DNA of 64,000 nt from Agathobacter sp. (GCA_963628465.1 CAVGEW010000040.1:4539-68538); one strand, 5' to 3'. Counted from the stretch's first letter, positions 6,922-55,957 are shown. Notes: generated from the sequence alone by a model not told the origin. Numbers and translations are program-made.

Positions 6922-9006
6922 TTAAGAATTATGTACTTTCTTAGACTTAATATATTTATCAAGACCTCTAAAGCCATTTGATTGATAATCAAATTCTTTT
7001 ATAATAGAATAATCTTTTATATTATGTTTATCTAAATACCTTTTCATAGAATCTTCAGTTATAGTATTAAAACTTATTTTATCATGAATTCGACCTAATA
7101 ATTCTTTACTAAAAGTATTTTCATAGGTACTTTTACCTGGCATAAAACCTATTTTATAACTAGCTAAAGCATTACTAGTCGCAAATATATAAGTATTCTT
7201 AAAGTCTATTTTATCCCCCTTAGAATTAGTTACATAGCCTTCATCTAGGATTTGTAAAAATAAATTAATAACACTAGGATGAGCTTTTTCTAATTCATCA
7301 AGTAAGATGATAGAACAAGGATTCATTCTAACCTTATCAAAGATATTTTCATCATCATACCCTATGTATCCTGCACTTGAACCTATAAGTCTTGATATAG
7401 ATATACTTTCATTATATTCACTTAAATCAAGTCTAATTAGAGGAATAGATAAAAACGTAGCAATATCTTTAACTGTTTTAGTTTTACCAACTCCAGTTGG
7501 TCCTGATAAAAGAATTGATACTGGAGATAGTTCATCTTTTCTTTTTAAAGCATCTATTATACTAGTAATAGCGTCTTCTTGAGAAATTATATTATCTAGG
7601 AGATATTCTTTTAAACTGTCAAAATCAAAATTTAAAAGAGGTATATTATTCTTTCTTAAAAGGACTTCTTTTATATCAGAATCTAATAATTTGTTAGGCG
7701 TATTTTTTTTCTTATTTATTTTTTCCCTAAGTTTTATTTCCATACTTCGGTATTTTAAAGCTTCTTCAAAGTTATTATTTTTGACCATATTTTCTTTAGT
7801 CTTTATAATATTATTTAGTTTATCCTTTAACTTAGATATATCTTTTTCTCTAGGACACTTTACTTCCTTCATAGCACATACACTATCAAGTAAATCAATT
7901 GATTTATCTGGATTAAATCTATTTAAGATATATCTATCGGTAAGATTTACTATGCTTTTAATATTATTATCTGTTATTTTTATATTATAGTGTTTTTCAA
8001 AGGAAGGTTTTATTCTCGAAAGAATATATTCTGTTTCTTCCTTAGACGGTTCATTTATTTTAATTATTTCAAATCTTCTTGCTAAAGCTCTATCTTTAGC
8101 TATATATTTATTATATTCATTCGTAGTTGTTGCCCCGATTATTTTTACTTTGCCCCGAGCAAGGTATGGTTTTAAAATATCACTTGCATTAATAGCACCT
8201 TCAGCTCCGCCTGCACTGGCCATAGTATGGATTTCATCAATAAAAAGGATTATCTCAGGATTGTTTTCTATTTCTTTGATTACTTTGTTTAATTTTTCTT
8301 CAAACTCTCCGCGATACTTAGTACCTGCGATAAGTGCCGACATTTCTAAAGACACTATTTTTTTATCCTTTAGCTTACTTGGGACATTACCATTTTTGAT
8401 TCTTCGAGCTAATTCTTCGACAATAGCACTCTTACCCACTCCTGCAGGACCTATAAGCAAAGGATTATTCTTATTTTTGCGAAGTAATGTTTCTATAACA
8501 AGATTTAATTCTGCGTCTCTACCTACTAACAAATCATCACTATCTAATAAAGACATATCTTTGCCTATATTATATAATTCTAACTTCTTATTACTTTTTT
8601 TATAGCTTTTTCTTATATCATCATATAATTTATCTATGTCTATATCCATACTTAGAAGAATTCTGATAGCTATACCTTCCCCTTCATCAAGAATAGCAAT
8701 TAATAAATCCATAGGTTCTAAAGTCATATTCCTAGTTATTTCACTAGCTTCTTTAATAACTCTTTTAAGTAAAGGAGTATATATACCGCAGTAAACATCA
8801 TTATTAGAAACCACTGAAAGAAGTTCATCTAAAAAATTATCATAAGAAAGACCATATTCTAATAAAATATTTCTAATTTTATCATTATTTTGTATTAAAC
8901 TAAGAAATAAATGTTCTGTTCCTACATAAGGATGATTTAACTCCATAGCTATTTTCTCAGCCTTTTTAAATACCTTCTTAACTTCTAAACTATAATTATT
9001 ATTCAT
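6922..9006 (-). CDS. clpC: Clp-type double-AAA+ ATPase (ClpC-like, short form)
   Basis: Clp_N-like N-terminus. AAA1 'LIGPAGVGKSAIVEELARRI', UVR-like coiled coil, AAA2 'LLSGPTGVGKTKTVKDIA'. Confidence 0.75.
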   Translation of the reverse strand: MNNNYSLEVKKVFKKAEKIAMELNHPYVGTEHLFLSLIQNNDKIRNILLEYGLSYDNFLDELLSVVSNNDVYCGIYTPLLKRVIKEASEITRNMTLEPMDLLIAILDEGEGIAIRILLSMDIDIDKLYDDIRKSYKKSNKKLELYNIGKDMSLLDSDDLLVGRDAELNLVIETLLRKNKNNPLLIGPAGVGKSAIVEELARRIKNGNVPSKLKDKKIVSLEMSALIAGTKYRGEFEEKLNKVIKEIENNPEIILFIDEIHTMASAGGAEGAINASDILKPYLARGKVKIIGATTTNEYNKYIAKDRALARRFEIIKINEPSKEETEYILSRIKPSFEKHYNIKITDNNIKSIVNLTDRYILNRFNPDKSIDLLDSVCAMKEVKCPREKDISKLKDKLNNIIKTKENMVKNNNFEEALKYRSMEIKLREKINKKKNTPNKLLDSDIKEVLLRKNNIPLLNFDFDSLKEYLLDNIISQEDAITSIIDALKRKDELSPVSILLSGPTGVGKTKTVKDIATFLSIPLIRLDLSEYNESISISRLIGSSAGYIGYDDENIFDKVRMNPCSIILLDELEKAHPSVINLFLQILDEGYVTNSKGDKIDFKNTYIFATSNALASYKIGFMPGKSTYENTFSKELLGRIHDKISFNTITEDSMKRYLDKHNIKDYSIIKEFDYQSNGFRGLDKYIKSKKVHNS

Positions 9007-23125: not shown

Positions 23126-23983
23126 TTATTTCTTAACTTTTTCAATCGTGCCTGTTTTTTCTAACTCTATTTCTTCTTTTCTAAAGTTTAAAGCCATACC
23201 TATGGTAAAAGCATAAGCAAGTAAATAAATCCAAAACATTAAAATTACGATGTTAGCTAGTCCTCCATAAAAGGTTGAATAATGAGCTATATTATTGATG
23301 TAATACGAATAAATGTAAGTAATAACAACCCATGAAAAGGTGGTAAATAAAGCACCGTATCCAACGTTTTTGCTTCTCACCCTTTTATTTGGGGCCATGG
23401 TATAAAGTATCTTTATAAAGAAATACATTATAAGCCAAGTAATAGGGCCTTGTAAAAAATTTATTACCATTGAAACATTATTAGTTACATTATTATTAAT
23501 TGAAGCATACTCTATTAACTCAATAATCTTGTTACCAAAGACAGGAACTATTAACATAAATATAAATAGTAATACTAGAACAAAAGTCATTATAAAGGCT
23601 TTTATTCTTCTTCTAAAAAAACCTTCTTGTTTTTCACCATAGATAGTATTTGATGTAATAATGATAGATGCCGGTCCATTAGATGCAATAAAGTAACCGA
23701 TGATTACTACCAAAAAGAAACCTATACCTTTGCCAGAACCACTACTTGTAGCTAGTAACATACTTGCTATATCAGCACCAAAAACAGAATCTATGAAGTC
23801 ATAAATAACATCTGTTGATAAATTAAGTAAGGCAGCCTCATAAGATATTAGAGTTATTGTTGGCACAATAGCTAAAACAAAGAAGTAAGCAAGTTGACCT
23901 GGTAAAATTGCCATTTCTGGTTTAAATAACGACTTTTTAAAATTATCCCAAAAATCATTTAATTCTACTTTAATCTTCTTCAT
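23126..23983 (-). CDS. YihY/BrkB-family membrane protein
   Basis: 6-TM protein with an N-terminus typical of the YihY family. Confidence 0.7.
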   Translation of the reverse strand: MKKIKVELNDFWDNFKKSLFKPEMAILPGQLAYFFVLAIVPTITLISYEAALLNLSTDVIYDFIDSVFGADIASMLLATSSGSGKGIGFFLVVIIGYFIASNGPASIIITSNTIYGEKQEGFFRRRIKAFIMTFVLVLLFIFMLIVPVFGNKIIELIEYASINNNVTNNVSMVINFLQGPITWLIMYFFIKILYTMAPNKRVRSKNVGYGALFTTFSWVVITYIYSYYINNIAHYSTFYGGLANIVILMFWIYLLAYAFTIGMALNFRKEEIELEKTGTIEKVKK

Positions 23984-25985
23984 TAGAATTATTATCCTTG
24001 CTTTTCTTCATATCTTCCACAGCTTCATTTAAAGCATCTTCGATAGTTTTAATATCATCTAAAATCATACTAAAGCCGAATTCAGCACCAAAGTCATATG
24101 GAAGTTTCTTTATCTCTTTATTTAATTTAAAAATATAATTACTTACTTGTTTTTGACTATATCCCATAAGATATATCACAAACTCATTACCATCAGTACG
24201 CATTATTTCACTGTTGTCAAGTTGAGTTTTAACCAAAACATTGGCAAGAGCTTTGATTTGTTTATCCCCTTCATTATAACCATATTGGTCATTTATTTCT
24301 TGAATCTTATTTAAATCGACCACCACAATAGTTTGAGGATAAATCGTATTATTATTCCATGTTTCTATATTTTCGTTTAAGAAGTTTCTGTTTTTTAAGC
24401 TAGTTAATTGATCAATAAATTTCATTTTATCATCTTTTTTTATTTTTCTAGCAATAGTTATTTTCTTACTTCTTTTAAATATAATAAGTAAAATAAGTGC
24501 CGCAAGAATAACTATGTAAAGAATATATTCCGCTATTTTAGTTATAAGTGCACCACTTTTAATAGTTTCTTGATGATTTAAAAGTCCTTCAATAACTATT
24601 TCATTTTCATCTAAAATATCAATATATTTATTAAGTAGCCTATATAAAGCACTATCAGTTCTTACTTTAAAAGTATATTTATTTTGAATATAATCAGTAT
24701 ATCTTACACTATAATTATCTAGTTTATTTTCTTTGTAATAATCAAATGTTTTTTTATCTATAATAAGATTAACATCTTTTTTATTAAGTTTAAATAATTC
24801 TTTTAAAGAACTAAATGTTTTTACATCAATTCCCTCGATAGAATTAACATAATCATATATTTTACTATTTTCTTGAACATAGACAGTTTCCCCTATCAAA
24901 GAATTTATAGACTTTATAACAGTGTTATTATTCTTAGATAAAGCAATCGCATATTCTATATTAAGTCCATCTGTTTGATAGTAATCATCTGTGAAATTAT
25001 AGTAATTAAAGTATAAATCTACATCACTTGATTTAATAGCTTTAGTAAACTTATTAAAGGTTTTATATTTTATAAAATTAAATTCTACATCAGCAAAATC
25101 ACTAAATTTACTTAAATAAACAGCGACAATACCCCCATATTTACCACCAGTTATAACTTCATAAGGTGATGCATTAACAAAGCCATAGTTATATGAAACA
25201 CTTTGCATACTATCAACTTCAGTTTCAGTTATATTCATACTTTGGGTAAAAGTATCAAATAAGTTATCATTAAATTCATCTTCAAAATCATTTTTCCATG
25301 TATTATAAAATTTAGTTAAGACACTAGATAATTTATCATCTATAATACTTAAAGTAAAATATTTCTTTACATCACTAAAATGATATATAACATTATAATC
25401 TTTACTTAATATTACATCTAAATATTCCATTAAAGGAACAAGCATATAATTACTATCTTCATTCATACTTAAAAGAAGTTCATCTTTAGTTTCAAATTGG
25501 GTAAATGACACATTAGATGCTTTTTTAATATATTTAGAAACATAAGTTAAATCAGATGCTAAGATTCCAATCGTTTTACCATTTAAATCTTCTTCCGTAG
25601 CTACATAATCATCGGTTTTACTTACAAGAACATAATGGTCTGTATAAAAGATTATATCACTATCAGATACATCCGTTTTTTGATTAAATGTAATGCCGCT
25701 TGGGTTACTTCCAGCATTAAATGTAATTGGGTTTATGGTAAGTTCATATTCATCTTCGAAGTCATCAATAAAGTCATAAAAGACACCACTTCCATCCTTA
25801 CCAAAAACATTAATATTGTTAATAACATTAATATTTTGAATTGTACCAATACTTTCATTAACCCAGTTTCTTTCAGCCACAGTTAATTTATTTTTATCAT
25901 TTAATAATATATATAATAGTCCGGCAATTAAAGCAACTATTACAACACTTATAATTATTATAATAATATTTTTCTTTTTTTTCAT
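23970..25985 (-). CDS. Membrane-anchored GGDEF-domain protein with two extracytoplasmic PBP-like domains and a degenerate active-site motif (RTDGNEF)
   Basis: 'DQLTSLKNRNFL', 'VVDLNKIQEINDQYGYNEGDK' GGDEF-domain blocks. The signature reads 'RTDGNEF' instead of 'R(Y/F)GG(D/E)EF'. Confidence 0.7.
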   Translation of the reverse strand: MKKKKNIIIIIISVVIVALIAGLLYILLNDKNKLTVAERNWVNESIGTIQNINVINNINVFGKDGSGVFYDFIDDFEDEYELTINPITFNAGSNPSGITFNQKTDVSDSDIIFYTDHYVLVSKTDDYVATEEDLNGKTIGILASDLTYVSKYIKKASNVSFTQFETKDELLLSMNEDSNYMLVPLMEYLDVILSKDYNVIYHFSDVKKYFTLSIIDDKLSSVLTKFYNTWKNDFEDEFNDNLFDTFTQSMNITETEVDSMQSVSYNYGFVNASPYEVITGGKYGGIVAVYLSKFSDFADVEFNFIKYKTFNKFTKAIKSSDVDLYFNYYNFTDDYYQTDGLNIEYAIALSKNNNTVIKSINSLIGETVYVQENSKIYDYVNSIEGIDVKTFSSLKELFKLNKKDVNLIIDKKTFDYYKENKLDNYSVRYTDYIQNKYTFKVRTDSALYRLLNKYIDILDENEIVIEGLLNHQETIKSGALITKIAEYILYIVILAALILLIIFKRSKKITIARKIKKDDKMKFIDQLTSLKNRNFLNENIETWNNNTIYPQTIVVVDLNKIQEINDQYGYNEGDKQIKALANVLVKTQLDNSEIMRTDGNEFVIYLMGYSQKQVSNYIFKLNKEIKKLPYDFGAEFGFSMILDDIKTIEDALNEAVEDMKKSKDNNSNEED

Positions 25986-26473
25986 TATTCTTCACTTTCT
26001 AGTGGCGTATTATTATTCCAAACAAGTCCAGAACCTGCCACATTTTTTGCACCCAAAATAGTAAATCCATCACTATTTTCGCTTTTTTCACACTTTAATG
26101 TAAAATTAATATCATAGAAAGATAATATATCTTCAGATAAATTAACAATACTTGTTGCTGCAAGACCTTTAGCTTCTTCTAAAGATGTATCTTGAACAAA
26201 ATCTATGATGATGTAAATTATTTTACCCTTAGTATTCATACTTACTTCCGTAACGCTTTTATTTTCTTTTAAAGATGCGATGTATTCATTTTTCATAGTT
26301 TCCGTAATTGGGTATTTATCTATTCCCTCAAGACGGTCACCATAGACATCTTTATTTCCACCTAGAAAGAAAGAAAATGTTACAATGATGATTGCCACAA
26401 GGCACGCAACTAATATAGCACCTAAGACAATAAGAACCTTATTTTTCCCCCATGATTCTTTTAATTTTTTCAT
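25985..26473 (-). CDS. Hypothetical membrane-anchored protein
   Basis: N-terminal TM followed by a soluble domain. Confidence 0.4.
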   Translation of the reverse strand: MKKLKESWGKNKVLIVLGAILVACLVAIIIVTFSFFLGGNKDVYGDRLEGIDKYPITETMKNEYIASLKENKSVTEVSMNTKGKIIYIIIDFVQDTSLEEAKGLAATSIVNLSEDILSFYDINFTLKCEKSENSDGFTILGAKNVAGSGLVWNNNTPLESEE

Positions 26474-26510
26474 TTTTCACCTCTTTAAGTAATATAATTA
26501 TACTATTTAT

Positions 26511-29372
<2,862 letters not shown>

Positions 29373-29376
<4 letters not shown>

Positions 29377-31460
29377 TTTTCTATCCTCCTTAAACCTGGA
29401 TAATTATTTAAGAACTTCTTTATTCCAAATCTTTTATTAAAAGCGACCGTAACAAATCTATCATCATTATCTATGATTACACCCCTACCAAATGAGGCAT
29501 GCATAACGACTTCACCATGTTTATAATCAATTTTTCCATTTTCATAAAAGTTTTGTTTGTTAAATTGTTTAAAATCATTATGGCTTTCTTCTCTTTCAAT
29601 TAAGTTACTATCTATTTCCGAAATAAATCTTGATGGCATATTAGCATTAACCGTACCATATAACATTCTTTTCTTAGCATTGGTAATAAATAATCTTTCT
29701 TTAGCTCTAGTTATCCCTACATAACAAAGTCTTCGTTCTTCTTCAAGCTCGCTATCTTCCCCAAGACTCATGTGGTGAGGCATGATGCCTTCCTCCATAC
29801 CAATTAAAAATACAACCTTAAACTCTAAACCTTTCGCCGAATGCATTGTCATCAAAGTTACAGCATTATCTAGATTTTCATGGTCAGAAGAATCTGCGAC
29901 AATACTTATATCTTCCAAAAAATCTTCTAAACTTACAGCACCTGTTTCTTTTTGATAACTTTCAGTAATACTTTTAAATTCCATTAAGTTTTCAAGTCTT
30001 ATCTCAGCCTCTAGCGTTTTTTCATTCTCAAGTTCACTTTTCATACCAGATTTTTCTAACACAACATCAATAAGCTCCGTAAGGTCAATATCCTTGGCCC
30101 TTTCCGTAAGTTCTAAAATTAATTTTTTAAATTCCAATTCTTTAGGTTTACTCAAACAGTTAAACATACATTCATTATTTTCTTTAGCTAAAGCCCTTAT
30201 GTTAGCTATCGATGTATCCCCAATTCCCCTTCTTGGTACATTGATAACCCTTTCTAAGGAAACATCATCTTGATGATTAGAAATAAGTCTTAAATAACAA
30301 AGTAAATCTTTAATTTCCTTTCTCTTATAAAAGTAATAGCTACCTACGACTCTATATGGCCAATTTTCTTTTAAAATGGCATCTTCGACATTTCTTGATT
30401 GAGCATTAGTTCTATATAAAATAGCAAAATCATTGTAGGTATAACCTTCTTTAAGTAATTTTTTTATATTATCTACGACTAACTTTACTTCATCTTTTTC
30501 ATTATTACCTCTGAGATACTTAATTTTAACTCCATCACCATAAGTACTATATAAATTAACTTCTTTTCTTTCTTGATTATTCTTTATAACACTATTTGCA
30601 GCATTTAATATATTATTTGTACTTCGATAATTTTGATTTAAAGTAATACAAGTACTATCAGGATAATCTTTTTCAAAATTAAGTATATTTTTATAGTTAG
30701 ACCATCTAAATCCATAGATACTTTGATTTACATCACCAACCACAAAAAGGTTGCGATATTTACTAGCAAGAAGTTTAACTAATTTATATTGTACTTCATT
30801 AGTATCTTGGTATTCATCTATTAAAATATAGCGATATCTTTCTTGATATTTATCTAGGATATCATCATTTTCTAAGAACAATTCTACTGGTTTTTTTAGT
30901 AAGTCATCAAAATCAATAGCATTATTTCTTTTAAGTATTCGTTCGTAAACAAAGTACACTATGGAAGCAACTTTTTCGGAGGGTGAAGTTAAGTACTTAT
31001 CTACCTCAGCATCACTTAACATTTCATTTTTAATATAACTAATTTTATTTTTAACATAGCTAGGACTATATTCTTTAGGATTTATATTATAGTCTTTCAT
31101 TATTTTTTTGATAATACTTGTAGAATCGTCACTATCAATGATAGTAAAATTAGTTGTAAGCCCTAGTTTTTCCGTATTTTCTCTGATTACTTTAAGACCA
31201 AAAGAGTGGAAAGTTCCTACAAAAGCATAGTTATTTTCCACAATATTACTTACTCTATCTCGCATTTCTTTCGCAGCCTTATTGGTAAATGTTATAGCCA
31301 AAATATTACCAGAATATACACCTTCATTAATCATGTTGGCAATCCTTGTTGTTAACACCTTAGTCTTTCCAGAACCAGCACCTGCTAAAACAAGGCATGG
31401 GCCATCTTTATGCAATACAGCTTGTTTTTGTTCTTTATTTAAACCCTCTAATAAGTTCAT
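29373..31460 (-). CDS. pcrA: ATP-dependent DNA helicase PcrA/UvrD
   Basis: 'AGAGSGKTKVLT' Walker A, UvrD helicase motifs. Conserved pcrA-ligA neighbourhood. Confidence 0.9.
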
Positions 31461-50034: not shown

Positions 50035-51017
50035 TATTCCACCTCCAGACTAATAGCATGAGCAATCGCGGGAATTGTGGCATGCTGATTAACACTCGTT
50101 GGACTATGAAGAGCTCCAGTTGCCACTAGTAAAATCTTTTTATATTTTTTATTAAGCAATATCTTATTAAATAAAACTATAGGTAAACAAGCTGGACCAC
50201 TTCCCCCAGCATAAGTCTCTTGGCTATCTAAATAAAGTTCACAGCCAGCATCCAAACATTTTTTTAACTTTATATCATACACTATTTCTAAATAATCTTT
50301 TAAAATATTACTGCCTACACAACCTAAATCTCCAGTTAACACTAAATCATAATAACTTGCATCTCTTTTTAAATTATCTAAATGAACCGCGATAGTTGAT
50401 GCAGCAGCAGGTGCCATCGCTGCCCCTAAATTATTAGCATCAGTTACCCCCAAATCTACAGGAACACCAATCGTAGCACTTTCTATTTTTATTTTGCTAA
50501 AGTTTTTACTTAAAAGCGTTGCTACTGCTCCAGTTGTTGTAAATGTCGCAGTATGAGGTTTCGGAGCCCCATACTCAACTGGATATCTAAACTGTCTTTC
50601 CGCAGTTAGATTATGACTACTCGTAATATTTAAAGCTTTTTTTAACTTGCCGCTATCAAGCATTACAGCCCCCACAATTAAACCTTCTACAAAGGTTGCA
50701 CATGCCGAATAAAGACCTAAAAAAGGAATATTATAATCTCGTGCACTATAATTACTAATAGCTATTTGATTAGTTAAATCTCCCCCAACTAGTAAATCTA
50801 TGTTACTTAAAGCTAAATTATTTCTTCTAATAATATTATCTATCACAAGTTTTTGCATCTTTACTTCTGCTTGTTCAAAAGTCTTTTCCCCAATATAATA
50901 ATCATCCATCACTAAGTCAAGTCTTCTTAAATGGCTATTTTTCTCTAATGGACCTACAACTGTATAATAATCATTTAAATAAACATTTCTAAATTTAAAA
51001 CTAGCCATAAATAACAA
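50034..51017 (-). CDS. spoVAD: Stage V sporulation protein AD
   Basis: Thiolase-like fold protein of 327 aa in the spoVAC-D-Eb context. Confidence 0.85.
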   Translation of the reverse strand: MLFMASFKFRNVYLNDYYTVVGPLEKNSHLRRLDLVMDDYYIGEKTFEQAEVKMQKLVIDNIIRRNNLALSNIDLLVGGDLTNQIAISNYSARDYNIPFLGLYSACATFVEGLIVGAVMLDSGKLKKALNITSSHNLTAERQFRYPVEYGAPKPHTATFTTTGAVATLLSKNFSKIKIESATIGVPVDLGVTDANNLGAAMAPAAASTIAVHLDNLKRDASYYDLVLTGDLGCVGSNILKDYLEIVYDIKLKKCLDAGCELYLDSQETYAGGSGPACLPIVLFNKILLNKKYKKILLVATGALHSPTSVNQHATIPAIAHAISLEVE

Positions 51018-51438
51018 TCCTCACAATCACCAAAATAAACGCAGACACTATGCCATATAAAATAACTGAGCCCGCTAGTTTAAAAAAATTAGCGCCTAGT
51101 CCTGTTATCAAACCATCCTTTTTATACTCAAGAGCACTAGATGCCACACTATGAGCAAAACCTGTCGTAGGAATAATTAAGCCACACTTAGCTTTAGTTA
51201 CCCAAGAATCAAAAAAACCTAATGCAGTTAGAAATGAAGCCACGCCAATAACAATAAGAGCAACAATAAGACCAGTTTCAACTGATGAAAAAGCAAAACA
51301 ACTCTTTAAAATAACAGACAGAGCCTCTGCTAAAAAACCAATTAATCCCCCCACTAAAAAAGCCACTCCTATATTTTTAAGTTTCGCCTCTTTTGGAGTA
51401 TGCTTTTTAACTAATAACTTATAATCATCTTTATTCAT
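51001..51438 (-). CDS. spoVAC: Stage V sporulation protein AC
   Basis: 4-TM small protein. 'KHTPKEAKLKN..FLVGGLIG'. Confidence 0.8.
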   Translation of the reverse strand: MNKDDYKLLVKKHTPKEAKLKNIGVAFLVGGLIGFLAEALSVILKSCFAFSSVETGLIVALIVIGVASFLTALGFFDSWVTKAKCGLIIPTTGFAHSVASSALEYKKDGLITGLGANFFKLAGSVILYGIVSAFILVIVRIVIYG

Positions 51439-51470
51439 AAATATTCACCATTTATATTATGAATTAATTT

Positions 51471-52115
51471 TTATCTACTATACATGTAATTTTTCATTTT
51501 AGTTAAACTTCTTTTTTCATATCTCGACACCATTACTTGGGTTATACCTAGCTTTCTAGCCGTTTCACTTTGAGTTAAATCTTCATAATATCGACTTTTA
51601 ATAATATCTTTTTCCAAAGTATCTAAAGAATCTATACTATTTTTAAGTTCTAATTTATCATCTAAAGAAATAGCCTCTTCTTCCCTAAGTACTTCATGCA
51701 AACTTCTTTCATCACTTTTAACTTCATCTATAGATACAAAACTATTTGCAAAAGATAAAACTTGTTCTAACTTTTCTTCTTCCATCTCAAGGTAAGCCGC
51801 AAGCTCTTTATTTGATGGTTCACGCATTATTTCTTGGGCAAGTCTTACCCTACCTACATCTATCATTTTAAGAAGTTTATTAATGTCTTTATTTAGTTTA
51901 ATTTCCTTATTATTTGCTAATAAATACATTTCCCCAAAGATATAATTATAAGCATAAGTACTAAATTTAGTTGTACCATCATCATGAAAATTTTGATAAG
52001 CTTTAATAATACCAAGTACCCCAGCTTGATATAAATCATTTTTATCAACACCATAAAACTTCTTAGCAATAGTCCATATTAATCCTGCACTTGATTTAAT
52101 CAATTCCTCTAGCAT
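51471..52115 (-). CDS. Sporulation-type sigma factor (SigF/SigG-like, 214 aa)
   Basis: Sigma-70 region 2 'GLIWTIAKKF..YQAGVLGIIKA..F.TYA' and region 4 HTH 'LTQSETARKLGITQVMVSRYEKRSL'. Confidence 0.75.
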   Translation of the reverse strand: MLEELIKSSAGLIWTIAKKFYGVDKNDLYQAGVLGIIKAYQNFHDDGTTKFSTYAYNYIFGEMYLLANNKEIKLNKDINKLLKMIDVGRVRLAQEIMREPSNKELAAYLEMEEEKLEQVLSFANSFVSIDEVKSDERSLHEVLREEEAISLDDKLELKNSIDSLDTLEKDIIKSRYYEDLTQSETARKLGITQVMVSRYEKRSLTKMKNYMYSR

Positions 52116-52450
52116 TATAATGCCTCCATTTCTTTATAAGCTTCTACCTCTGTTTTAACAATTGGTAATTTCAAATATTTACATAAATAGACATTTGCAT
52201 TATTAACACCACACACCCTTATAGTCCCTTTATTACACTTAATATAGTATTTACTATTTAATAAAGAATCTATACCAGCATTATCTACCATTTCTAACTT
52301 CTCAAAATTATACACAAGATTCTTAATATCATGTTTCTTTATAACAGTATTTAGATAATTATTTATTTTAAAACTTGCTTTTCTATCTAAGATACCTTTA
52401 AGTCTCGCAAATAAAACTTCATTTTTATACTCTAACTCTAGTTTAAACAT
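52115..52450 (-). CDS. STAS-domain anti-sigma-factor antagonist (SpoIIAA-like)
   Basis: 111-aa STAS fold. The phosphoacceptor block reads 'MVDNAGIDSL' (Asn where Ser is expected). Confidence 0.6.
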   Translation of the reverse strand: MFKLELEYKNEVLFARLKGILDRKASFKINNYLNTVIKKHDIKNLVYNFEKLEMVDNAGIDSLLNSKYYIKCNKGTIRVCGVNNANVYLCKYLKLPIVKTEVEAYKEMEAL

Positions 52451-52598
52451 ATTTACATCTCCTTACATATCTAGTTTAGAGGATATTTTTCTAACTTTAA
52501 ACAGTTTCGACAAAACATGTCAATTTTCTTACACATTAGTTTACACACATTTTACACTTTCATTATATTAAAATATATGATATAATCTTTATGGGCTT

Positions 52599-52685
52599 GC
52601 CTGTATGGCGGAATCGGTAGACGCGATAGACTCAAAATCTATTTTCAGTGATGGAGTTCCAGTTCAAGTCTGGATACAGGCACCA
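52599..52685 (+). tRNA. tRNA-Leu (anticodon CAA), long variable arm
   Basis: Acceptor 'gcctgta'/'tacaggc', anticodon stem-loop 'ataga-ctCAAaa-tctat', T loop 'ttcaagt', CCA encoded. 87 nt. Confidence 0.9.
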
Positions 52686-52723: not shown

Positions 52724-54091
52724 CTATGTTTCCACAATAGTATTCTTTTCTAATTTTTCATTCTTTATTTCTTTTGGTTTATCATTTACAAGATTCTTTC
52801 TTTTATCTTTTTTCTTACCCTTTTTCTTAGTTAAAATAATAATTATAATTATCATTAAAACAAGCACTCCACTAAAACCAAAAATAATATAAGTATAAAG
52901 GTCTACTTTTTTATTTAAATCTAATACATATTCATCATTATAATTAATAAGTGATTGCATCTTTTTATCATACATGTAAAAACCTTTATCACCAGTTTCA
53001 ACGTTAACACCATATATAATCACGTAGTTAGAATCTTTTTTATAGTAATATCCCTTTACTAAGATGCCATTTATTTCTATTTCGCCTTTGGTATATCCTT
53101 TAATTTCTTCACTAGATTCAAGTGGATATATTGTTATTTTATTAACACCTATTTCATAATAAGGTGTATATTTACTAGATTCTTCATCATATATAAATAG
53201 ACTAATACTTCCTTCTTCATCTTTTAGACCTACAAGAACTAAGTTAGTATATTCATTTTTATATGCTGGTATATCAAAATCATTTATTTTGACTATATAT
53301 TCTGCATAAAGACTTATCTCAGGTAAGTTTTCTTTTAACTTAACCACTGTGTAATTTTTACCATCAACTTCCACATTTATAGGGTTTTCGTCTTTTACTT
53401 CCACATTAACTACATATGTTTTTTCAGCTCCACTTTGGGCTCTTACCACTATTTCAAATTTATTTGTGCCAGGTACAACAGTTTTTGTTCCATCGCCTGT
53501 TACAGATGCTGTTTTATCTTGAAGTGAAGCAATAATATTTACTTCTTTAGTTCCTTCAGGAACAACTAGGTTATATTCCAAAGTATCGGCATTAAATTCA
53601 GGCGTTAAAGTAAAACCTTCGACTTCTAGAGTTTTTAAGCTGTTATTTTTTGAATAACTTGCTTCAAGTTCGGCTTGAGTTATGATATTAATAGTTTTGC
53701 TACTACTAGTAAGAGTTATTTGACTTAAATCATCAAACGCATAAGCTAGATAACTATCAACAACAACTTTAGTACTTCCTTTTTTCAGTGTTTTAAACGT
53801 AAATGTATATGACTTACTTTTGATGCCCGTCGAGCTTGATGCAGCCATTCGGTTTCCATTACTTTCTGCATTAGTACTTTTAAGTTGTAAATAATTTTTA
53901 TCATAATTAAGAGACATTTCCCAACTACCTATCGAAGTTGCACTTGAAATAGTTACTGTTACAACTACATTATTGCCTACGACAACCGTAGATGAACTAG
54001 CAACCGTTATTTTTCCACTTGCAGCACTCGCCACACTAGGGAAAGCTATTAAACAAAATAAACTAATAAATAATATTTTTATTTTTTTCAT
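52724..54091 (-). CDS. Cohesin-domain + cadherin-like beta-sandwich surface protein, C-terminal TM anchor
   Basis: Signal peptide. Cohesin-like 'VVVTVTISSATSIGSWEMSLNYDKNYLQL'. Cadherin-like 'LKTLEVEGFTLTPEFNADTLEYNLVV'. TM plus KKKGKKKDKRK. Confidence 0.55.
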   Translation of the reverse strand: MKKIKILFISLFCLIAFPSVASAASGKITVASSSTVVVGNNVVVTVTISSATSIGSWEMSLNYDKNYLQLKSTNAESNGNRMAASSSTGIKSKSYTFTFKTLKKGSTKVVVDSYLAYAFDDLSQITLTSSSKTINIITQAELEASYSKNNSLKTLEVEGFTLTPEFNADTLEYNLVVPEGTKEVNIIASLQDKTASVTGDGTKTVVPGTNKFEIVVRAQSGAEKTYVVNVEVKDENPINVEVDGKNYTVVKLKENLPEISLYAEYIVKINDFDIPAYKNEYTNLVLVGLKDEEGSISLFIYDEESSKYTPYYEIGVNKITIYPLESSEEIKGYTKGEIEINGILVKGYYYKKDSNYVIIYGVNVETGDKGFYMYDKKMQSLINYNDEYVLDLNKKVDLYTYIIFGFSGVLVLMIIIIIILTKKKGKKKDKRKNLVNDKPKEIKNEKLEKNTIVET

Positions 54092-54104
54092 TTTCCACTC
54101 CTTC

Positions 54105-55859
54105 TTACTGCTCTATTTCATAAGTACCTAAAATTCTTTTTTGTACTTGCAACAAATCTAAAGCATTAACTTGCCCATCTTTTGAGGTGTCCGCAGCCTC
54201 AAGATAAGCTCCAGTTAAAGTATATGTACCCAAGATATTTTTTTGAACTTGCAATAAATCTAAGGCATTTATAATGCCATCACCAGATGTATCTCCCTTT
54301 ATAACAACTTCTAAAATTTCTGTGCTATTTTGATTGTTTATAGTTATTTTATCACCAGTTGCAATCACGCCACTAGTTTTACTATTGTTATTTGCATCCA
54401 TAATGCTTACAGTTGCATTCCCACCAACAGCTTGCAAAGCGCCTTTCACAGAAGCAACATCACTGCCTAAGGCAATACCTGAAATATATTTTGATGTATA
54501 TTTATAACCGCTTGATGTTACAATTGTTGAAATAGGAATGCTAGTAGGATTTGGAGTATCATTTTTATCATCATCGACTGCCCCATTGCTACTATTATTA
54601 ATTGTAGAATTCATATTATTATAAACAGGAATCTTAAATGTTAATTCAAGACCAAGTAAGTTATTTTTTTCATAAGCATTATATGAGGTACTTGCCTCAC
54701 TCATTGCGCCCGCTAAATTAGTCATATATTGATGAGTAAATAGTTTACCTTCGCTGCTTGTTGCCACATTAAACTTTTGTAAATAACCAGTATATTGGTC
54801 TTTTAAAATATAACCACCAGCGAACTGGTCTATTCCTCCGTTTATTGCTGCTACGACACCATTCCAACCAGATTTAACTGCATAAGTAAGACCACAATAA
54901 GTTGTGCCATAATTTGCAACACAAGTATCAGTAACGCCAAAATTAAAGAAATTATAGTAATCTAAATAATCAGCCGTAGTTCCTTTATAAAGATTTTCAA
55001 GGCTAGTTCCTGTGCCAAGTTCTACTCTCATCTTAGATGCTATTGCTATCGGACTCGCTTTATCTACACTACCAGCAATAATTATATCTTTTAAATCTAG
55101 TTTGTTCTTCGCTACATTTAAATGATAATTATAAAAATCAGCCCCCGTTAAAATAGTTGAAACAGCACTTGGATAACTATTAACCAAGAGATTATCATAA
55201 GATTGGTCAAGGAATTGAAATATATACTTTTCTGTAAAAGAGTTTCGAGGGTCCATATAATAAGCTACTCCTGTTTGTGAAGGTGCAACATAACCACCGG
55301 GTGACGTTGCTGTACATGTTTCATCAAAGAATGTTTTATCATAAGTACCCTTATAAATATAGTTTCGACCACATTCACTTTCTCTATTTACAACATAAGA
55401 CCAGTCCATATTAATATTTATAGCTTTGAAAGACCAAGTGGGATGATTTTCTTTTAAATCACAAAGACCTCCCCAATAACTTGAAGGAATCCCTGCCTGA
55501 CTTAATGTTTTCTCACATTCAGTTGAGGGAGGAACATCATCACTAGTATAAGATTTAATTAATAAAACATCATCACTACATACATATCCATCAACATCTG
55601 TATAATAACTCATATGATACCAACCGCCATTACATCTTAAATGATTGTTAACATCATCATACAATTTATCATCTTTGAGTAAATAATAATCATTTTTATA
55701 AAGAAGACCTACTCTTTTTCCATTAGTTCCTCCTGGGTCATACCTTAAATTAGTTTGATTATATAATATTTTAACTCTATATGTATAAGAAGCAGCTTTA
55801 ACATTTAAAACCCACGCAAAGGACAAAACAATAGTAATAATAAATATAATTTTTTTCAT
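54105..55859 (-). CDS. Secreted SH3b + putative N-acetylglucosaminidase-like peptidoglycan hydrolase with C-terminal type-I dockerin
   Basis: Start moved to the internal Met 'MKKIIF..' with an AGGAGG RBS. 'YYMDPRNSFTEKYIFQFLD' resembles glucosaminidase family blocks. Tandem dockerin repeats 'GDTSGDGIINALDLLQVQKNILG'/'KDGQVNALDLLQVQKRILG'. Confidence 0.55.
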   Translation of the reverse strand: MKKIIFIITIVLSFAWVLNVKAASYTYRVKILYNQTNLRYDPGGTNGKRVGLLYKNDYYLLKDDKLYDDVNNHLRCNGGWYHMSYYTDVDGYVCSDDVLLIKSYTSDDVPPSTECEKTLSQAGIPSSYWGGLCDLKENHPTWSFKAININMDWSYVVNRESECGRNYIYKGTYDKTFFDETCTATSPGGYVAPSQTGVAYYMDPRNSFTEKYIFQFLDQSYDNLLVNSYPSAVSTILTGADFYNYHLNVAKNKLDLKDIIIAGSVDKASPIAIASKMRVELGTGTSLENLYKGTTADYLDYYNFFNFGVTDTCVANYGTTYCGLTYAVKSGWNGVVAAINGGIDQFAGGYILKDQYTGYLQKFNVATSSEGKLFTHQYMTNLAGAMSEASTSYNAYEKNNLLGLELTFKIPVYNNMNSTINNSSNGAVDDDKNDTPNPTSIPISTIVTSSGYKYTSKYISGIALGSDVASVKGALQAVGGNATVSIMDANNNSKTSGVIATGDKITINNQNSTEILEVVIKGDTSGDGIINALDLLQVQKNILGTYTLTGAYLEAADTSKDGQVNALDLLQVQKRILGTYEIEQ

Positions 55860-55957
55860 GTCAAATCCTCCTTGTATCATAATAATTATACCAAAGTACA
55901 AGCAAACTTACAATTTATTTACACTTTAAAAAGTAAATAAATGTAAAAGAAAAAAAG

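Follow-up and report, generated by a model that had tools for sequence, protein, structure and literature searches.

In canonical spore formers spoIIAB lies between spoIIAA and sigF. How, then, might sigma-F be controlled in an operon from which the kinase gene is missing? The question is raised by a five-gene unit on the minus strand of a 64 kb stretch of genome deposited as Agathobacter sp. (GCA_963628465.1, CAVGEW010000040.1:4539-68538; the whole stretch is called the window hereafter, with positions counted from its first nucleotide), in which a SpoIIAA-like STAS gene runs directly into a sigF-like sigma gene. Here we describe this junction and its conservation among related species, the residue that replaces the phosphorylated serine of SpoIIAA, and the ways in which such a module may still govern its sigma factor.

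The STAS–sigma junction and its conservation

The STAS gene (52450..52115, 111 aa, Pfam STAS) follows a ribosome-binding site, AAGGAG, at 52464..52459, and the sigma gene (52115..51471, 214 aa, with regions 2, 3 and 4) has its own, GGAGG, 8 nt 5' of its start codon (52127..52123). Base 52115 is common to the STAS stop codon TAA and the sigma ATG (TAATG), which confirms what a sequence-only reading of this DNA had claimed, namely that stop and start overlap and leave no room for a kinase gene. The interval was also checked for a small anti-sigma open reading frame (ORF) that might have been missed at the junction, and none was found; the only other ORFs there, of 41 and 50 aa and in other frames, look spurious, and none exceeds 50 aa.

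Relatives were sought in a scan limited to one genome for each species; of the 209 obtained, the best 80, with sigma proteins 85-49% identical to that of the window, were analysed. The STAS ORF lies directly 5' of the sigma gene in 78 of these 80 species loci, the gap ranging from -29 to +11 nt, and the full order STAS-sigma-spoVAC-spoVAD-spoVAEb was found in 69 species loci as well as in the window; the same gene order was seen on many independent metagenome contigs. The relatives' sigma proteins, called from the most upstream start codon, are 212-224 aa long. At least 78 related species share with the window an operon from which spoIIAB is gone. A mis-assembly or an overlooked small ORF concealing a kinase at the junction would have to have arisen in 78 independently assembled genomes and on many metagenome contigs alike, and in the face of the base shared by stop and start; nothing was found in favour of this explanation, which we regard as refuted, its probability being negligible.

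Among named relatives the closest comprise 'Firmicutes bacterium CAG:460', whose sigma is 77% identical, 'Clostridium sp. CAG:609', Candidatus Onthocola and a large number of metagenome-assembled genomes (MAGs) from the guts of humans, chickens, rabbits and goats that bear the label 'uncultured Tenericutes' or 'uncultured Bacilli'. Genus CAG-460 has been placed in the order RF39, family UBA660 (PMC13155120), and the host of the operon is an uncultured member of the Bacilli, of order RF39 and UBA660-like in family.

Downstream of the sigma gene, after a spacing of 32 nt, lie spoVAC (51438..51001, 145 aa; 85 bits against Pfam SpoVAC_SpoVAEB and 128 bits against NCBIfam spore_V_AC), spoVAD (51017..50034, 327 aa; Pfam SpoVAD, 360 bits) and spoVAEb (50034..49684, 116 aa; NCBIfam spore_V_AE, 105 bits), which in this order are the minimal C-D-Eb form of the spoVA dipicolinate-channel operon. 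Because the sole strong terminator, an intrinsic one with a 20-bp stem and a T-rich tail (49661..49618, minus strand), follows spoVAEb, the five genes from STAS to spoVAEb form one transcription unit. The minimal spoVAC-D-Eb operon of the sequence-only reading thus stands as to its genes and their order but not as a separate operon, since these genes share a transcription unit with sigma and have in addition an internal promoter of forespore type, described below.

Some loci depart from this layout. In five species (L059, L073, L077, L080 and L086) the 4.7-6 kb that follow the STAS–sigma pair contain no spoVAC-D-Eb; two of them, L077 and L059, have a gene for polynucleotide phosphorylase (PNPase) a few kb downstream in place of spoVA. 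Two further species, L038 (5869-5976) and L050 (5894-5994), have no STAS gene, and the same Spo0A-box promoter as elsewhere stands directly before sigma; these are clean STAS deletions with the promoter retained. On the upstream side, a block encoding PcrA/UvrD, an NTP transferase, LigA, an ORF of ~165 aa, a GGDEF protein and BrkB directly precedes STAS in CAG:609-like species (L001-L006, 1-8253). In the window this block is found at 23126-31460, ~20 kb off and on the other side of the operon, and a rearrangement has therefore occurred.

The acceptor site and the missing switch enzymes

The STAS protein scores 26.5 bits against Pfam STAS (PF01740, cutoff 22.6), and its top NCBIfam model is spore_II_AA (TIGR02886) at 47.8 bits, with the equivalog cutoff of 114.75 not reached. 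In a phmmer search of the PDB it aligns ungapped to SpoIIAA of B. subtilis and G. stearothermophilus (entries 1auz, 1th8 and 1tid), and also to the SpoIIAA entries 1h4x/1h4y, such that D56-N57-A58-G59 sits on the D-S-S-G of SpoIIAA and Asn57 occupies the position of the B. subtilis phospho-Ser58. A MAFFT alignment agrees in placing Asn57 in the phospho-Ser58 column, so that the earlier claim of an Asn at the expected phosphoserine holds, and no Ser is found at the site. The literature yielded no usable data on an S58N mutant of B. subtilis SpoIIAA. An AlphaFold2 model of the protein (predicted local distance difference test, pLDDT, 93.9) has the beta-beta-alpha-beta-alpha-beta-alpha-alpha topology of SpoIIAA, and its top fold matches are the SpoIIAA chains 1tid_B and 1th8_B, both from SpoIIAA-SpoIIAB complexes, at a template modelling (TM) score of 0.89. 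In this model N57 opens helix alpha2 as its first residue. The protein thus resembles a SpoIIAA in that its gene is the first in an operon with a sigF-like gene and has a Spo0A box upstream, while the N-terminus of helix alpha2 has no phosphorylatable Ser.

The acceptor position proved to be variable well beyond the window. Among 80 orthologs (79 relatives and the window) the Ser58-aligned column contains E (35), N (28), S (5), D (4), Q (3), G (3), P (1) and A (1). An exhaustive profile search of 1.84 billion representatives recovered only 488 STAS relatives at E <=0.001, and in the ~140 best of these representatives the column reads S (23), E (21), K (19), I (17), N (12), L (10), Y (7) and others. 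The flanking residues are kept, D(-1) in 131/138 and G(+2) in 130/137, as are the core fold positions common to SpoIIAA. Since the acceptor residue varies so widely, the site is selected neither for phosphorylation nor for phosphomimicry. We had considered a 'phosphomimetic lock', with Glu or Asp at the acceptor, and rejected it as a general rule, given that K, I, L and Y occur there too across the wider family. That family, P0267-P0414 in our set, is sizeable and consists of STAS proteins of 100-120 aa with a conserved (I/V)D-x-x-G(I/L) loop and S, E, K, I, N, L or Y as the acceptor.

Loss of the serine has not meant loss of selection on the gene. Across four species groups the ratio of nonsynonymous to synonymous substitution rates (dN/dS) of STAS ranges over 0.05-0.37, with 0.053 for the group that contains the window; this is comparable with 0.08-0.15 for sigma and 0.04-0.13 for SpoVAD, and the STAS gene is under purifying selection.

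The sigma factor had been described as SigF/G-like and short. It is SigF-like, and not ambiguous between SigF and SigG: among NCBIfam models it scores 141.8 bits against spore_sigF (TIGR02885), 138.5 against SigB/F/G, 90-96.5 against SigG and 69.4 against SigB, although the TIGR02885 equivalog cutoff of 321.45 is not reached and the alignment begins at model position 14. All three sigma-70 regions, r2, r3 and r4, are matched in Pfam. In the best PDB match, G. stearothermophilus sigma-F (1L0O_C), query residue 3 aligns with chain residue 31, and ~30 N-terminal residues of canonical sigma-F are therefore missing from the 214-aa protein, as its reported shortness would have it; an upstream extension of the ORF is impossible.

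To these changes is added the apparent absence of the enzymes that act on SpoIIAA. With B. subtilis and G. stearothermophilus SpoIIAB as queries (phmmer --max), no SpoIIAB-like ORF was found in the window and 86 loci (~0.85 Mb of related loci); the best match, at E = 0.19, is a 522-aa HisKA/HATPase_c sensor kinase adjoining a response regulator. A Pfam scan of window ORFs >=90 aa likewise detected no HATPase besides the HisKA sensor kinase, and no PP2C/SpoIIE domain. One sentence of a 2024 gene survey based on KEGG orthologues states that RF39 genomes are largely without spoIIAB and spoIIE (PMC10868615). For this genome as a whole, the case for kinase absence draws on this survey and on what evolution has done to the acceptor position. 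With spoIIAB absent from the operon and the acceptor Ser not kept, the SpoIIE/SpoIIAA-P/SpoIIAB partner switch cannot govern sigma-F in the clade; that a phospho-relay version of the switch cannot operate here is well supported. The sequence-only proposal of a reduced forespore sigma module, in which the change from Ser to Asn accompanied loss of the kinase, finds support in the kinase-less junction of 78/80 loci, the unconstrained acceptor and the lack of a SpoIIAB-like ORF in the window and the related loci. The module is a kinase-less, Ser-less spoIIA variant that characterises a large uncultured gut clade.

Promoters and the sporulation programme

A Spo0A box, TGTCGAA (52512..52506, minus strand), lies ~60 nt 5' of the STAS start codon. 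In 80/80 loci a same-strand TGNCGAA precedes the STAS start, its position ranging from -53 to -74 and in most cases from -58 to -65, compared with a background frequency of 8.8% of 250-nt windows. The operon promoter region (52523..52473, minus strand) comprises TTGACA at 52523..52518, which is possibly a degenerate inverted 0A box, a -35-like TTTAAA at 52501..52496, a 17-nt spacer and a -10-like TAAACT at 52478..52473; a pattern scan chose another second hexamer, giving TTGACA-18-TAAAGT at 52523..52494. An anchored alignment of 79 upstream regions yielded the consensus TTTTGACAT..TTTTGTCGAA..TGTTTAAA-N17-CTATATT/CTAAACT, in which the 0A-box part, spelled TTTTGTCGAAg, stands between TTTTGACAT and TGTTTAAA. 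Judged by sequence, these elements would serve as the promoter of the STAS operon, and Spo0A would control it.

A second, forespore-type promoter precedes spoVAC (51483..51455, minus strand; GTATA-N17-CATAATA, a sigma-G/F consensus). Its motif, GTATA-N17/18-CATAATA, matches the B. subtilis sigma-G/F forespore consensus, and the pattern G[ACT]AT[AG]-N17/18-CA[ACT]NNTA is present upstream of spoVAC in 63/73 loci against 0.5% of background windows. The GTATA of the -35 (51479-51483) falls within the last codons of the sigma gene, those for the conserved C-terminal '...YMY'; the sigma C-terminus and the spoVAC promoter therefore constrain each other.

Further parts of the programme are found at one RF39 locus, L076 (2380-6630), where the series ftsA-ftsZ-spoIIGA-sigE, with no sigG after it, is found at a distance of two genes upstream of STAS-sigF. 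The SigE encoded there is 55% identical to B. subtilis SigE, pro-sequence included, and the spoIIGA-sigE pair is intact. Together with the conserved Spo0A box and spoVAC promoter, this pair argues that the programme is in use and not decaying. The opposite possibility, that RF39 does not sporulate and that the operon is a decaying remnant or a re-used sigma module, with loss of spoIIAB and spoIIE as part of a wider erosion of the pathway, would suit the reduced genomes of RF39 and the five species without spoVA beside sigma. It would also suit the 0% given to RF39 MAGs by SpoMAG, in which spoIIAB is among nine genes found in all predicted spore formers (PMC12536801). Yet STAS, sigma, SpoVAC and SpoVAD all have dN/dS values well under 1, both promoter signals are conserved as described, spoIIGA-sigE is intact in L076, and the KEGG-orthologue survey itself predicts sporulation of RF39 with altered regulation (PMC10868615). 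We therefore consider a non-sporulating RF39 improbable.

Sigma-G is probably present in the clade, and the spoVAC promoter is of the sigma-G type. Genes for 256-aa SigG proteins, which score 250-270 bits against B. subtilis SigG, occur in low-GC relatives of the RF39 SigE locus, the carriers being L089 (FtsZ 79% and SigE 68% identical to those of L076), L094, L101 and L157. L089 (4180-6510) has the canonical order spoIIGA-sigE-sigG, and in L094, L101 and L157 two large unannotated genes stand between sigE and sigG. No SigG gene was placed in the same genome as a kinase-less operon, and the PNPase genes beside SigG loci and beside kinase-less loci are only 70-73% identical. A single forespore sigma in which sigma-F and sigma-G have merged is unlikely. 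On other low-GC Bacilli contigs a conserved ORF of ~80 aa with no recorded Pfam hit was seen just upstream of SigG-like genes (L167 5708-5950, L189 4-249), and contigs of this type have genes for a PRC-barrel protein, lspA and rluD after SigG.

How sigma-F may be controlled

If phosphorylation does not govern this antagonist, it may act on sigma-F itself. We incline, somewhat more than not, to read the operon as a spoIIA variant without a kinase in which sigma-F is under the direct, stoichiometric action of a phospho-independent STAS protein. As a best guess at the mechanism, Spo0A~P would switch the operon on, and translational coupling would then provide STAS and sigma-F in roughly 1:1 amounts. 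The basic, phospho-independent STAS would act directly and stoichiometrically on the acidic sigma-F, either holding it in the manner of an anti-sigma factor or modulating its activity. Such direct action would make kinase and phosphatase dispensable, and forespore expression of spoVA would then proceed from the sigma-G/F-type internal promoter.

Direct action is hinted at, in each case weakly, by the clade-wide translational coupling, by a reversal of charge, by correlated divergence and by the lack of another partner encoded nearby. The median isoelectric point (pI) of STAS is 9.6, versus 5.9 for B. subtilis SpoIIAA, and that of RF39 sigma is 5.3. STAS and sigma distance matrices correlate at r = 0.68, and at a partial Mantel r of 0.40 when SpoVAC, SpoVAD and SpoVAEb are controlled for, a value reached by 0/2000 permutations; STAS and the SpoVA proteins give partial r of -0.15 to 0.12.

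Several considerations weigh against this reading of the operon. Both the charge complementarity and the mirror-tree correlation are weak, AT-driven Lys bias and gene linkage confound the two of them, and the binding of STAS to sigma is itself hypothetical. In the wider family almost every residue is tolerated at the acceptor, so that Glu or Asn here is no evidence of a phosphomimetic locked state. The search for a kinase or anti-sigma in this genome spans only 64 kb. Finally, RF39 has never been shown to sporulate, and the machine-learning study cited above gives its MAGs a sporulation probability of 0% (PMC12536801).

What STAS would do to sigma-F is narrowed by L038 and L050, which dropped the gene and kept the promoter. 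This indicates that STAS modulates sigma-F and is not indispensable, and its clean loss in two species fits a modulator or anti-sigma-like role better than that of an obligatory activator. A bolder form of direct action is possible but doubtful, namely that the four-protein switch of SpoIIE, SpoIIAA, SpoIIAB and sigma-F has collapsed to two proteins, STAS having changed partner so that, with no need of phosphorylation, it binds directly to the shortened sigma-F and is the only regulator dedicated to it. If true, this would be the first STAS protein to act as a direct sigma-binding factor, and a natural minimal solution for compartment-specific sigma activation.

Partner switching might instead persist without the phosphate. 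An anti-sigma-F encoded elsewhere, either a divergent, kinase-dead SpoIIAB/RsbW-like protein or an unrelated small protein, would be displaced stoichiometrically by STAS, under the control of abundance, stability, redox state or a ligand. Such an arrangement, which we think rather unlikely, would explain why STAS is conserved and co-expressed with sigma and why there is hardly any variation at D56 and G59, the residues framing the loop by which SpoIIAA binds its partner; the STAS model also superposes best on SpoIIAB-bound SpoIIAA (TM 0.89, as above), and the UsfX-RsfB complex 8ih8 is among its fold matches. It has precedents in the SigF-UsfX-RsfA/RsfB system of M. tuberculosis, in which the anti-sigma UsfX is not an active kinase and the antagonist RsfA is phosphorylation-independent. 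That system resembles the RF39 operon in combining a SigF-type sigma with a STAS antagonist that works without phosphorylation, but it keeps an anti-sigma of the HATPase fold, whereas none is detectable in the RF39 loci or the window. Neither the window nor the ~0.85 Mb of related loci yielded a candidate for a hidden anti-sigma, and spoIIAB is largely absent from RF39 in the KEGG-orthologue survey (PMC10868615). A canonical circuit with a hidden SpoIIAB is also hard to square with the two species that keep sigma and its promoter without STAS, because loss of SpoIIAA would silence sigma-F, locking it off. The window further encodes a ClpC-like AAA+ ATPase with Clp_N and two AAA modules (6922-9006, minus strand). 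ClpCP degrades SpoIIAB in B. subtilis, and the ATPase of the window could matter here if sigma-F is under the control of an unstable inhibitor.

STAS might, finally, be unconnected to sigma-F and kept for another role, such as nucleotide or ligand binding or action on another partner, with no control of sigma-F other than that of Spo0A over transcription and that of position on the chromosome. The hypervariable acceptor site and the loss of STAS from 2/80 species that keep sigma could be read in this way, and STAS-only proteins with unknown, non-sigma targets have been described (PMC8256260). It is, however, difficult to see why an unrelated protein should remain in tight 1:1 translational coupling down to 49% sigma identity, why it should co-vary with sigma and not with the SpoVA proteins, or why SpoIIAA should still be its closest relative in sequence and fold. 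We judge a STAS without any part in sigma-F control to be improbable.

A tRNA-Leu(CAA) gene (52599-52685) lies upstream of STAS and divergent from it. Directly upstream of this tRNA-Leu/STAS promoter region is a gene for a secreted protein with a cohesin and a cadherin-like domain (52724-54091, minus strand), adjoined by one for a secreted protein with a C-terminal type I dockerin (54105-55901, minus strand); 52724-55901 is possibly a cohesin-dockerin pair in a reduced-genome gut bacterium. On the other side, directly downstream of the spoVA terminator, genes for a Cys-rich secreted protein of 1070 aa (45526-48738) and a membrane-anchored protein of 259 aa adjoin a Tad/Flp-pilus-like cluster (37371-49514, minus strand). 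In this cluster a CpaF-type T2SSE ATPase is encoded at 42435-43517, two SAF/RcpC-CpaB proteins at 43534-45084 and a DUF5411 protein at 45102-45515, while several ORFs at 37371-42415 match no family. The region at 37.3-40.1 kb was considered as a second spoVA-like operon or the site of a SpoIIAB-sized gene and rejected, its ORFs having no SpoVA or HATPase match and belonging to the Tad-pilus-like cluster.

Among described systems the nearest is the spoIIA operon (spoIIAA-spoIIAB-sigF) of B. subtilis and Geobacillus, with which the RF39 operon shares a STAS protein nearest SpoIIAA, a sigma nearest sigma-F, an upstream Spo0A box, and spoVA directly downstream behind a sigma-G/F-type promoter; spoIIA and spoVA adjoin in B. 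subtilis as well. It differs from that operon in lacking spoIIAB, in a window STAS without the phosphorylatable Ser and in a sigma without ~30 N-terminal residues. Its -10 looks sigma-A-like rather than sigma-H-like, its spoVA is cut to C-D-Eb within the transcription unit of sigma, and its STAS and sigma proteins both fall far below the NCBIfam equivalog cutoffs (47.8 vs 114.75 and 141.8 vs 321.45 bits). The STAS-only proteins SypA, BtrV, RbaV, HmpV and HsbA are likewise single-domain STAS regulators with outputs beyond the classical anti-sigma kinase, but all keep the conserved Ser and a cognate kinase/phosphatase partner, as does, for Ser and kinase, every STAS-only regulator described in a 2021 review (PMC8256260); the RF39 STAS family has neither. 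In sigma-SsdA of Actinoplanes missouriensis, STAS and sigma are coupled physically and stoichiometrically, the STAS domain being fused to the sigma and binding the anti-sigma domain of a separate protein, SipA (PMC10733313), whereas in RF39 STAS and sigma are distinct proteins coupled in translation, and no anti-sigma is known for them.

spoIIAA, spoIIAB and spoIIE have been treated as highly conserved or universal across spore-forming lineages (Galperin et al. 2022 preprint), and Turicibacter has the canonical AA-AB-sigF set. The bare loss of spoIIAB and spoIIE in RF39 was already known from a single sentence, the only prior notice we found (PMC10868615), in which neither the retained STAS gene nor the lost Ser nor the shortened sigma appears. 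We found no earlier description of a retained, selected but phospho-dead antagonist, or of the question of sigma-F control that it poses. Both proteins are small (111 and 214 aa), and tests of the pair, whether in vitro or with B. subtilis as host, would be easy although the organism itself is uncultured. A large and common gut clade keeps an apparently Spo0A-controlled sigF, sigE/spoIIGA and spoVA under selection while being largely without the switch enzymes. If RF39 sporulates, sigma-F activation and compartment specificity would need another route, and gene-content predictors that rely on spoIIAB would misclassify the clade; if it does not, the operon would be a clear case of the re-use of a developmental sigma module.

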